Source of the DNA: a virus
Lineage: Duplodnaviria; Heunggongvirae; Uroviricota; Caudoviricetes
Virus record (IMG/VR): IMGVR_UViG_2609460344_000002
Direction: 5' to 3' (one strand)
DNA length: 6,825 nt
Positions 3,001 to 6,825 of this stretch are shown here, piece by piece. A program made the position numbers. Each line of letters starts with the position of its first letter. The first letter of the stretch is position 1.

Positions 3001-6000
3001 TGTGACTCTTAAACGGGCCTGTTCCCTGCTGACGGTGAAATCCTTCAGTGAGGATGAACGGGTGATCACCGGGATTGCGTCAACGCCTTCTCCGGATCGG
3101 GATGGTGACATCCTGGAGCCGGAGGGCGCGGAGTTTGGCAGTGCGATCCCGTTTCTCTGGCAGCATGACCATTCCCGCCCGGTGGGGCAGTGTACGGTGC
3201 GCCGGGTCAGCGAAGGGCTGGAAATCACGGCAACACTGGTGAAGCCCGTACCGGATATGCCGTCGCAACTGGCTGCCCGGCTGGATGAGGTCTGGGCGGC
3301 CATTAAGACCGGGCTGGTCAGGGGGCTGTCCGTGGGCTTCCGTCCCCATGAATACACCTTTCTGGACGGAGGCGGACTGCATTTTCTGCGCTGGGAACTG
3401 ATGGAGGTGTCTGCCGTCACCGTGCCCGCGAATGCGGAATGCACCATCCGGACCATTAAATCTTACGACCGCCCGTTTTCTGCCGCGTCCGGCAACCGGA
3501 AACCGGTGGTGAAAATCGCATCTTCTGCCGGCGCTGCGGCACAGTCAACAACCGTTTTTCATAAGGAAAAGACCATAATGAATATTGGCGAACAGATTAA
3601 AAGTTTTGAAAACAAGCGTGCAGCGCTGGCAGCCTCCCTTGAGGAGGTCATGACCAAAGCCGCAGAGGAAGGGCGCACGCTGGATGTGGAGGAGGAAGAG
3701 CATTACGACAACACCGCAGCGGAAATCCGTCAGGTGGATGCGCACCTGAAGCGCCTGCGTGAACTGGAAGCCGGTAAGGCCGCCACGGCGCAGCCGGTGA
3801 AACAGGCCGGTAACGGGAATGTGGCCGCGGTGGCTTCTGCGCCGGTGATCCGTGTGGAGCAGAAACTGGATAAGGGGATTGGCTTCGCCCGCTTTGCCAA
3901 ATCGCTGGCTGCGGCTAAAGGCGTCCGATCTGAAGCCCTGGAAGTGGCCCGTCGTCAGTATCCGGATGACAGTCGTCTGCATCATGTCCTGAAATCGGCA
4001 GTGGGCGCGGGGACCACCACGGATCCGCAGTGGGCAGGCAGCCTGTCTGAATATCAGGAATACGCACAGGACTTTATTGATTACCTGCGTCCGCAGACCA
4101 TTATCGGGCGATTTGGTCAGGGCGGGATCCCTGCACTTCGTCAGGTGCCATTCAATATCCGTGTGCACGCCCAGGTGTCCGGCGGTGCTGCCGGCTGGGT
4201 GGGTGAGGGTAAGGCAAAACCCCTGACGAAGTTTGATTTTGAATCCATCACCTTCAGTCATGCGAAGGTGTCGGCCATTGCGGTACTGACGGAAGAATTG
4301 ATCCGTTTTTCCAGTCCGGCTGCTGATGCACTGGTCCGTAATGCGCTGGCGGAAGCGGTGGTGGCGCGTCTGGATACAGACTTTGTGGACCCGAAAAAAG
4401 CCGCAGTGGCAGATGTCTCCCCGGCGTCCATCACCCATGATGTGAAGGGCACGGCATCAACCGGTAACCCGGATGCGGATGCAGAGGCTGCGTTTGGACA
4501 GTTTGTGGCAGCAAACCTGCAGCCCACCGGTGCGGTCTGGCTGATGTCCAGCACCAATGCCCTGGCACTGTCCATGCGTAAAAATGCGCTGGGTCAGAAG
4601 GAATACCCGGACATGACCCTGCTGGGTGGCTCCTTCCAGGGGCTGCCGGTGATTGTCTCCCAGTACGTGGGTGACCAGCTGGTGCTGGTGAATGCCCCGG
4701 ATATTTATCTGGCGGATGACGGCGGCGTGGCAGTGGATATGTCCCGCGAGGCATCACTGGAAATGCAGTCTGAGCCGGGCGGCGACAGTACCACGCCGTC
4801 CCCGGTGGAGCTGGTTTCCATGTTCCAGACAGGCAGCGTGGCCATCCGTGCGGAGCGCTGGATCAACTGGCGTCGTCGCCGTACCGCGGCGGTGGCGGTG
4901 ATCACCGGAGTGAACTACGGCAGTGCGTCCGGCGGCTGAGTCTGATAAGGAGGACGGGAGGCGTGCGCCTCCCGTAACAGGTTATGGCAAAGATCCGATA
5001 TCTGCAGGGCACGCATGATGCCCGGGCCGGGGATATCCGTGATGTGGCACAGCCGTGTGCGGAGGTGCTGGTTCGCCTGGGAAAGGCGGAGTACATCACG
5101 GTGCGACGTCCGGCAGGTCAGAAAAAGAAACGTGATGCGGAGCATGGCGAATGTGGAACCTTTTACGGCGAACCCGAAAAAACCAGAAATCAGGACGTGA
5201 CGTAAGAGAGGCGGGCTGGACCAGCCTGTTTCAGGCGGTGGCTGAGCCCTTTTCCGGCGCCTGGCAGCAGGGCGTGAAAGCCGATCCTGAAGCCGTCCTC
5301 TCCTTTCATGCGGTGTTTGCATGTATTTCGCTGATATCCCAGGATATCGCCAAAATGCGGCTGCGTCTTATGCAGACGGATGCGCATGGGATACGCAGGG
5401 AAACGCGCCGGGGGGATATTGCCCGCCTCTGTCGTCGTCCCAACGCCCAGCAGAACCGCATCCAGTTTTTTGAACTGTGGCTGAACGCCAAACTGCGTCA
5501 CGGCAATACGGTGGTGCTGAAAATCCGTAATGCCCGGGGGCAGATCAAAGAACTGCGTATTCTGGACTGGAGCCGGGTTGAACCTCTGGTGGCGGATGAC
5601 GGCGAGGTGTTCTACCGCATCACGCCGGACCGGAACTGCGGGATCACGGAGGCGGTGACGGTGCCTGCCCGGGAAGTGATCCACGACCGGTTTAACTGTT
5701 TTTTTCATCCGCTTATAGGATTGCCGCCGGTGTATGCCGCCGGGCTGGCGGCCACGCAGGGGCATCATATTCAGGAAAATTCGACGTCTTTTTTCAGAAA
5801 TGGCGGCAGGCCGTCCGGGGTGATTGAGATCCCCGGCAGTATTACGGAAGAAAATGCGAAAAAACTGAAGAGCAACTGGGACAGCGGGTATACAGGCGAA
5901 AATGCGGGGAAAACGGCCATTCTGAGCAACGGGGCAAAATACAACCCCACGACGTTTTCACCTGTGGATGCGCAGACGGTGGAACAACTGAAGATGACCG

Positions 6001-6825
6001 CTGAAATTGTCTGTTCGGTGTTCCGTGTCCCGGCCTACAAGATTGGCGTGGGACAACCGCCTTCCAGTGACAACGTGGAGGCGCTGGAGCAGCAGTATTA
6101 TTCCCAGTGTCTGCAGACGCTGATTGAGTCCATTGAACTGTTACTGGATGAGGCGCTGGAAACGGGGGAAAACGAGAGTACAGAATTTGATGTCACCACG
6201 CTGCTGAGAATGGACAGTGAGCGGCGCATGAAAACGCTGGGGGATGCGGTGAAAAATACGCTTCTCACGCCCAATGAGGCCCGTAAACGGGAGAACCTGC
6301 CGCCCCTGGCCGGCGGTGATGCACTGTATCTTCAGCAGCAGAACTACAGTCTGGAGGCGCTGTCCCGTCGTGATGCCCGTGAGGATCCGTTCTCGTCTGC
6401 CGGGAAAACAGTTTCATCACAGCTGCCTGACGGCGCATCTGACGGTAATAAGGCAATCAGTGAAACAGAGCGTGATGCGGTGAAAGCGATGTTCAGGGGG
6501 ATACTGAGAAAATGACGGAACGGGAACTGTCCATTATTCGTGCACTGGGAGAAGAATTCTCCACAGTGCTGGCGGATTTACAGCGCACATTTGAGGGGAA
6601 GATGGCCTCGCAGGCACAAGCGTTTGAAGAGAAACTGACTTCCCTGTCGGCGGTATTACAGAAGCATGTGACGGTGGATGAGGTGCGTCCGGTTCTGCAG
6701 GCGATGGTGGATGACGCTGTGGGGGCCATTCCGGTACCGCGTGATGGTCGTGATTATGATCCGGATGTACTGCAGCAGGCGGTGAATGATGCGGTCGCAA
6801 ATATTCCGCAGCCGGCGGACGGTAA

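Follow-up and report, generated by a model that had tools for sequence, protein, structure and literature searches.

We found that the capsid-first layout of the head genes in the window (the whole stretch of viral DNA that was analysed, 6,825 nucleotides) is real, yet it is already known and is ordinary for a common E. coli prophage family. The block reads HNH endonuclease, small terminase subunit (terS), large terminase subunit (terL), capsid fusion, small ORF, portal and post-portal gene, all on the + strand. Gene calls on the window place the end of terL at 2938 and the start of the capsid gene at 3002, with no portal gene in between. The preliminary description had suggested that this order marks either a rearranged module or a distinct lineage such as a satellite; the order is instead ordinary, because it is the normal, long-conserved layout of the family. 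The features of the window are as follows.

35-346, + strand: HNH endonuclease (Pfam HNH, E 2.6e-8; PHROG 589; the gene caller placed the start at 11)
637-1200, + strand: terS, small terminase subunit (Pfam Terminase_2; PHROG 641, E 1.8e-68)
1197-1653, + strand: 5' part of terL, ATPase domain (Pfam TerL_ATPase; collinear, as far as the left junction, with the intact W46 terL of E. coli)
1654-2113, + strand: gpJ fragment of 460 bp, from a lambda-J-type tail-tip gene, second Ig-like domain (Pfam Ig_J_second, E 1.6e-32)
2114-2938, + strand: 3' part of terL, nuclease domain (Pfam TerL_nuclease; out of frame with the 5' part)
2963-2990, + strand: terminator-like hairpin and T-run (stem-loop at 2963-2980 with a 7-bp stem and a 4-nt loop; tail TTTTTTTATTTT)
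2991-2996, + strand: Shine-Dalgarno sequence AGGAGG, 5 nt 5' of the capsid GTG (GGAG is kept in the hairpin-region alignment)
3002-4939, + strand: prohead protease, linker and major capsid in one gene (GTG start, 645 aa; Pfam, PHROG and NCBIfam)
4984-5205, + strand: small conserved ORF, 73 aa, PHROG 829, overlapping the portal start by 55 nt
5151-6515, + strand: portal of the HK97 type, 454 aa (Pfam Phage_portal and TIGR01537)
6496-6500, + strand: G5 tract just 5' of the portal stop, located by alignment with relatives
6512-6825, + strand: 5' end of the post-portal gene, with an ATGA overlap at the portal stop; cut off by the contig end

The claim that the capsid gene lies ahead of the portal gene was borne out, since both the coordinates and the family matches hold. 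The capsid fusion matched PHROG 617 ("major head protein") over its full length (E 3e-261), Pfam Phage_capsid (PF05065) at residues 386-635 (E 5e-14) and NCBIfam TIGR01554 major_cap_HK97 with 78 bits against a cutoff of 27.5. Its N-terminal protease part passed the Pfam cutoff for Peptidase_S78 (PF04586; residues 48-152, E 2.4e-8, 34.7 bits against a cutoff of 21) and scored 46 bits with TIGR01543, under the curated cutoff of 59. Within the protein, the protease occupies about residues 1-165, a coiled-coil scaffold-like linker about 185-290 and the HK97-fold capsid about 300-645. H55 and S110 are invariant among 25 homologues and are predicted to be the His/Ser catalytic pair of an S78 prohead serine protease. 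A search of the PDB with the fusion returned a single weak sequence relative, 9d9w (E 0.0019). The portal ORF matched Pfam Phage_portal (PF04860) with an E of 1.5e-81 and TIGR01537 portal_HK97 with 351 bits (cutoff 112).

The collinear HNH-terS-terL-capsid-portal block, at 80% coverage or more, was found in 1,122 of 5,426 complete E. coli genomes, in identical order, and in 90 phage records. Among these are the Stx phages 2851 (Pankowvirus), BP-4795 (Marienburgvirus), YYZ-2008 and 1717, which share the order through the portal with JLK-2012 and the Stx1a- and Stx2c-converting phages. In phage records and complete genomes together, 93% of the window is present at 95-99.8% identity, the missing 7% being the gpJ patch; the long-tailed Stx phages match this 93% at 95-99.6% nucleotide identity and have an intact terL, whereas the window carries the 460-bp patch. 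Capsid-first homologues are therefore widespread and characteristic of an established group of phages, an outcome that the preliminary description had itself named as refuting its proposal, and the order cannot be called an anomaly.

The syntenic homologue search proposed in the preliminary description showed that the terL - protease/capsid - portal order is conserved well beyond E. coli. It was present in 26 of 29 loci from other species of alpha-, beta- and gammaproteobacteria, and two further loci, cut by contig ends, were consistent with it. Locus L033 was rejected as an exception to the synteny, being a different small integrase island with only capsid and protease genes. Order-conserving loci in the three proteobacterial classes had capsid identities down to 32%, and capsid, portal and terL identities co-varied across the loci (r = 0.81 and 0.79). 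A homologue of the small ORF lay at the same position in 20 of the 29 loci (the Enterobacterales loci except L020, plus the two Snodgrassella loci), and this ORF is annotated in W46 and BP-4795. The isolated phages Pseudomonas PAJU2, Salmonella FSL SP-016, Burkholderia vB_SBP39 and Moraxella Mcat6 also have the capsid first, at 27-77% protein identity; in the PAJU2 record, ORF003 is annotated as "prohead protease fused capsid protein". In vB_SBP39 and Mcat6, unlike the window, protease and capsid are separate genes, and therefore the capsid-first order does not depend on the fusion. The proposal of a distinct lineage thus stands in a weak sense, in that a large and old lineage of HK97-type head modules has kept the capsid-first order, and falls where it meant a satellite or capsid-forming island.

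The head module of HK97 (gp3 portal, gp4 protease, gp5 capsid and gp74 HNH) belongs to the same families as that of the window, sharing portal_HK97 TIGR01537, major_cap_HK97 TIGR01554, an S78 protease and an HNH gene by the terminase genes; HNH proteins are the usual partners of HK97-type terminases. HK97 itself is ordered terL, portal, protease, capsid, with protease and capsid as separate genes. The window departs from this canonical order, with terL followed by the fused protease and capsid and then the portal, and this difference is common to the entire lineage. Fusions of protease and capsid are familiar from actinobacteriophages, where small phages (Microbacterium cluster EE, Arthrobacter AN and others) encode protease, scaffold and HK97-like capsid in one gene; the paper describing them (PMC7302621) reports no portal 3' of the capsid. 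These fusions differ from the window in coming from phages of Gram-positive hosts, and no sequence relationship to it was detected. A full-text literature search found no discussion of the capsid-first order in the phages related to the window. "Terminase - portal - protease - capsid" is a rule of thumb and not a law: the capsid-first lineage is very common among proteobacterial temperate phages, including the medically important Stx phages. Capsid-first modules should not be flagged as rearranged or satellite-like by annotation pipelines, or by programs that classify prophages and satellites, where these rely on the canonical order.

The window very probably comes from the late operon of an ordinary lambdoid prophage of E. 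coli, one of the 2851/BP-4795 family, and covers the operon's packaging and head genes. The contig spans only 6.8 kb, and the prophage beyond it is seen through relatives and a sibling contig. The family's fixed, inherited order is HNH - terS - terL - [protease-scaffold-capsid] - small ORF - portal - post-portal - connector - tail genes. The following steps draw on HK97 and lambda biology. The genes, all on a single strand, are probably read from a Q-dependent late promoter, and Q-modified RNA polymerase would pass the conserved hairpin and T-run 3' of terL. The strong AGGAGG ribosome-binding site would then drive the capsid gene, whose product would bring its own S78 protease (H55/S110) and a coiled-coil scaffold-like N-terminal segment, co-assemble on the portal ring and cut off its own N-terminal residues, about 300 of them, to leave an HK97-fold shell. 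Because assembly follows translation, no special mechanism is required for a portal gene that lies 3' of the capsid gene. In this contig terL is broken by the gpJ patch, and DNA packaging would therefore be possible only with the terminase of another prophage.

The preliminary description had also noted a chimeric terL and taken it, together with the gene order, as a sign of a distinct lineage or a rearranged module. The gene is chimeric in this contig, but the chimera is a separate, contig-specific event unrelated to the order, and the rest of the module is shared. Positions 1654-2113 match E. coli gpJ tail-tip genes at 99.4% identity and take the place of 381 bp of terL, with junction microhomologies of TA (1652-1653) and A (2114). 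Alignment to intact terL and calculation of the frames showed that the patch breaks the gene into three frames; with its 3' part out of frame with its 5' part, terL is therefore a pseudogene in this contig. The chimera may be real, and we regard misassembly of a repeat-rich draft genome as the less likely source, though one with an appreciable chance of being correct. The window is the whole of draft contig JNRD01000127.1 from E. coli 2-460-02_S3_C3; three colonies from one stool sample gave three different continuations exactly at 2114 (contig end, gpJ and terL), a protein across the right junction was found in this contig only, and no complete E. coli genome spans either junction. Against an artefact, the junctions share just 1-2 nt, so that spanning reads would be needed for a k-mer graph to join them, and the left junction is present in all three colony assemblies. 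Beyond the patch the sequence also returns to terL, in the same orientation and after a gap of only 381 bp, which is very rare for a random misjoin and expected of a templated patch. No mention of the JNRB, JNRC or JNRD accessions was found in the literature search.

A phage satellite or capsid-forming island of the cf-PICI type, with its own head and packaging genes and no tail genes, is a very improbable source of the window. cf-PICIs carry HNH, terS, terL, portal, protease and capsid genes of the HK97 type, and satellites are 10-15 kb long and lack tail or lysis genes. The window resembles cf-PICIs in this head and packaging content, HNH included, and taken alone holds only gene types that they carry. 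Its close relatives, however, are complete lambdoid phages of 45-60 kb with cI/cro, replication, Q, lysis, head, tail and fibre genes. In these relatives, which match at 95-99.8% identity, genes for the connector, tail tube, tape measure, J and fibres follow the shared block, and Q and the lysis genes, often with stx, come before it; in 2851, W46 and BP-4795 the lysis genes lie upstream and the connector, tail, tape-measure and J genes downstream. The sibling contig L004, from the same stool sample, has a lysis cassette of holin, lysozyme and Rz genes immediately ahead of the same HNH-terS-terL genes, and PAJU2 and the Stx phages are isolated, named and classified phages. A recent local rearrangement or scrambled remnant is the least probable explanation of capsid-before-portal and can be given almost no weight: the chimeric terL does imply at least one illegitimate event in the element, but the capsid and portal ORFs are both full length, their segment aligns collinearly, at 99.8% identity, with intact prophages from complete genomes, and the order survives the deep divergence of capsids across the proteobacterial loci. 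The possibility that the gene order is an assembly artefact was rejected, as complete genomes have the same order.

The terminator-like hairpin reported at the terL/capsid boundary is present, with a T-run after it, but is no sign of rearrangement: it is conserved across genera and so does not mark a junction or recombination scar. In an alignment of 18 sequences (Enterobacterales, Snodgrassella and Marinobacter) the hairpin is kept, with 96.8% of cells paired, a variable loop and one compensatory pair (C-G/A-U). Judged from this alignment, it is a conserved part of the module, and in form it would pass as an intrinsic terminator, with a GC-rich stem-loop and a U-run directly after. It is this conservation that points to a putative role, the fold being no better than that of shuffled sequence (z = -0.72). 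An Rfam scan of the window returned nothing at the hairpin and one chance-level match elsewhere.

The product of the post-portal gene is a repeat-rich, fibre-like protein, and the window ends at 6825 inside its repeats. No convincing relative of it was found in the PDB, and its first 104 residues as a query returned contig-end fragments only. The G tract ahead of this gene varies among relatives, with G5 in 45 IMG/VR contigs, as in the window, and G6 in 37. Where it is G6, as in some Stx phages such as 2851, the portal frame runs into the next gene. No canonical slippery heptamer is present at the tract, and a programmed frameshift there is speculation. Two further readings can be given only a low probability. 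The capsid-first layout, hairpin and T-run, capsid ribosome-binding site and small ORF may form a conserved expression-control design of the lineage, for example a boundary for mRNA processing or stability by which the ratios of terminase, capsid and portal are set. The G5/G6 tract may be a switch between a free portal and one fused to the repeat-rich fibre protein with its CBM5/12-like tip, which, if true, would amount to a neck or head fibre under phase variation. In the searched literature neither reading was found described. The fused frames of G6 relatives appear as "portals" of 859-861 aa, and in phage 2851, for example, the portal gene is mis-annotated through the G tract as an 859-aa protein.

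We found that the capsid-first order of this head module is real, and that a known, very common phage group has it as its standard and conserved layout. All of the long ORFs of the window are carried on the + strand, as follows:

35-346, + strand: HNH endonuclease (family scans)
637-1200, + strand: terS (family scans)
1197-1673, 1612-2136 and 2024-2938, + strand: terL, in three frames (family scans)
3002-4939, + strand: protease-capsid fusion, 645 aa (family scans)
4984-5205, + strand: small conserved ORF, 73 aa (PHROG 829)
5151-6515, + strand: portal, HK97-type (PF04860, E 1.5e-81; TIGR01537, 351 bits)
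6512-6825, + strand: post-portal ORF, running past the window end (ORF call)

The terL gene is followed by a 63-nt spacer and the protease-capsid gene, and the portal lies 3' of the latter. Family scans and ORF positions thus bear out the preliminary description, which had placed the capsid gene directly after terL and before the portal. The 290-bp gap between HNH and terS (347-636) is non-coding; in HK97-type phages, cos is expected between these two genes.

The conservation of this order was assessed by a scan, with the capsid fusion as query, of a single genome from each bacterial species, which gave 29 loci in which terL, capsid, portal and neck genes were placed by phmmer. In this synteny search, which the preliminary description had proposed, the order terL - protease/capsid - portal was conserved on a single strand in 26 loci from other species. 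The post-portal protein follows the portal in most of these, and a head-tail connector was detectable in 20. The 26 loci span gammaproteobacteria (many Enterobacterales genera, Hydrocarboniphaga and Marinobacter), betaproteobacteria (Snodgrassella) and alphaproteobacteria (Chelativorans, a Hyphomicrobiales MAG and a Caulobacteraceae MAG), with capsid identity to the window as low as 32%. Identities of the capsid to the window co-vary over loci with those of the portal and terL (r = 0.81 and 0.79), as would be expected of a module inherited as a unit. Two further loci are broken by contig ends, the remainder being consistent with the same order, and one is a different type of element. This last locus, in a Parasphingorhabdus MAG (L033, 5334-11709), is a small island with host genes on both flanks. 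It encodes an integrase and a few unknown ORFs, and its capsid gene has a separate S78 protease gene behind it; neither terminase nor portal was detected within 10 kb, and it may represent a minimal capsid-encoding satellite. In 20 of the 29 loci, those of Snodgrassella among them, the 73-aa ORF was detected in the interval from capsid to portal; in the window it shares 55 nt with the annotated start of the portal.

Isolated phages share the arrangement. Pseudomonas phage PAJU2, whose record names ORF003 "prohead protease fused capsid protein", and Salmonella phage FSL SP-016 have the same capsid-first order. Burkholderia phage vB_SBP39 and Moraxella phage Mcat6 have it too, but with protease and capsid as separate genes, and in Snodgrassella the two separate genes likewise both precede the portal; the order is therefore independent of the fusion. 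The fusion, the HK97-type parts and the order are all already present in public annotation. Our literature search found no paper commenting on the capsid-first order itself; a brief comparative account would thus be new as text and not as a phenomenon.

Within E. coli, megablast with the whole window found a collinear match to at least 80% of its length in 1,122 of 5,426 complete genomes, the top matches reaching 99.8% identity, and in 90 phage records. These include the Stx phages 2851 (Pankowvirus), BP-4795 (Marienburgvirus), YYZ-2008, 1717 and JLK-2012, along with many Stx1a/Stx2c-converting phages. With one collinear block recurring so widely, the order is neither peculiar to this window nor a local rearrangement. 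In 2851, BP-4795 and E. coli W46, a strain with an intact terL, the annotated surroundings of the block make up a complete lambdoid phage:

Up to the portal: cI/cro, replication, Q, (stx), lysis, HNH, terS, terL, capsid, small ORF, portal
3' of the portal: connector, head closure, gp10-like, tail terminator, major tail, tape measure, J, lom, fibres

The window itself is the whole of draft contig JNRD01000127.1 of E. coli 2-460-02_S3_C3. The stool sample yielded other colonies too, and in one of these a sibling contig has a holin-lysozyme-Rz cassette immediately upstream of the same HNH-terS-terL. Given the complete lambdoid context of the relatives and this lysis cassette, the satellite or capsid-forming island suggested earlier is excluded, as far as the data reach.

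The hairpin between terL and the capsid gene had also been cited in favour of a distinct lineage or a rearranged module. Among the terminator-like sites of the window, this stem-loop (GAACCGC-TCCG-GCGGTTT plus a T-run, 2963-2990) ranks first; its fold alone is not better than that of shuffled sequence (z = -0.72), and such sites are not enriched (5 found against 6.2 expected). Its position immediately ahead of the capsid ribosome-binding site is nevertheless conserved: 18 sequences (Enterobacterales, Snodgrassella and Marinobacter) have the hairpin there, and their alignment has variable loops, 96.8% of cells paired and one C-G/A-U compensatory pair. Conserved as it is at the same place, the hairpin belongs to the module and is no recombination scar. 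If lambda is a guide, Q-modified polymerase would pass through the hairpin, which may act as insulation in the lysogen, or on mRNA stability or gene dosage.

The chimeric terL, cited alongside it, is a separate matter. A segment of 460 bp (~1654-2113) stands in place of 381 bp of terL and matches E. coli gpJ tail-tip genes at 99.4% identity, in the region of their second Ig-like domain. Junction microhomology is 2 nt and 1 nt, and terL continues 3' of the segment in another frame. Three sibling assemblies (colonies C1-C3, one stool sample) are identical as far as window position 2114 and diverge beyond it: one contig ends, another stays in gpJ as far as lom, and the window goes back into terL. 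An assembly misjoin would account for the chimera, and neither junction was found in any of the 5,426 complete E. coli genomes; the protein across the right junction occurs only in the window contig. Against a misjoin, the sequence comes back into the same gene, in the same orientation, within a few hundred bases, and there is no k-mer overlap at the junctions, which makes a real templated patch somewhat the likelier origin. Real or artefactual, the chimera has no bearing on the order of capsid and portal.

The 645-aa protein joins an N-terminal S78 prohead protease domain to a C-terminal HK97-family capsid domain in family scans, with a full-length match to PHROG 617 (E 3e-261) and a TIGR01554 score above cutoff. 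H55 (LWQHDH) and S110 (GLSVGF) are invariant in 25 diverse homologues and fit the His/Ser pair of HK97-type S78 proteases; their predicted catalytic role follows what is established for HK97 gp4. Residues ~185-290 are charged and coiled-coil-like, and align with PHROG 80, "head maturation protease", in its C-terminal part. By analogy with HK97, the N-terminal ~300 residues are likely a tethered protease plus internal scaffold; the fusion would assemble on a portal ring and its N-terminal part would then be cleaved off. Small actinobacteriophages offer well-documented examples of protease-scaffold-capsid fusions (PMC7302621), and another such family has its own NCBI model (NF045541). A 1,079-aa ORF (P0001) in one E. 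coli contig has TerL_ATPase, S78 protease and capsid domains and shows 100% identity to the window capsid protein; read-through or a frameshift across the spacer between terL and capsid is its probable origin.

At the 3' end, a G5 tract (6496-6500) lies 13 nt before the end of the portal ORF, whose TGA overlaps the ATG of the next gene (ATGA, 6512-6515). The G5 allele gives separate ORFs of 454 and ~461 aa. In W46 and phage 2851, a G6 tract fuses them into a product of 859-861 aa annotated "portal", and it is because of this fusion allele that the post-portal protein bears that label. Both alleles are common in IMG/VR contigs (G5, n=45; G6, n=37) and mostly track clades, with several mixed clusters and one contig group in which identical flanks carry both. 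The post-portal gene adjoins the portal in most of the related loci; its full length is present in locus L003 (12422-13807). Its product looks like a fibre from its sequence: the N-terminus is helical and five tandem repeats of ~52 aa follow, in place of which the alphaproteobacterial relatives have collagen-like Gly-X-Y runs. Towards the C-terminus, a conserved motif is similar to the chitin-binding hairpins of CBM5/12 (PDB 7b5h_AE, E 3.5e-4; chitinases, E 0.03-0.05). Draft assemblies break within the repeats, which is presumably why the window ends at 6825.
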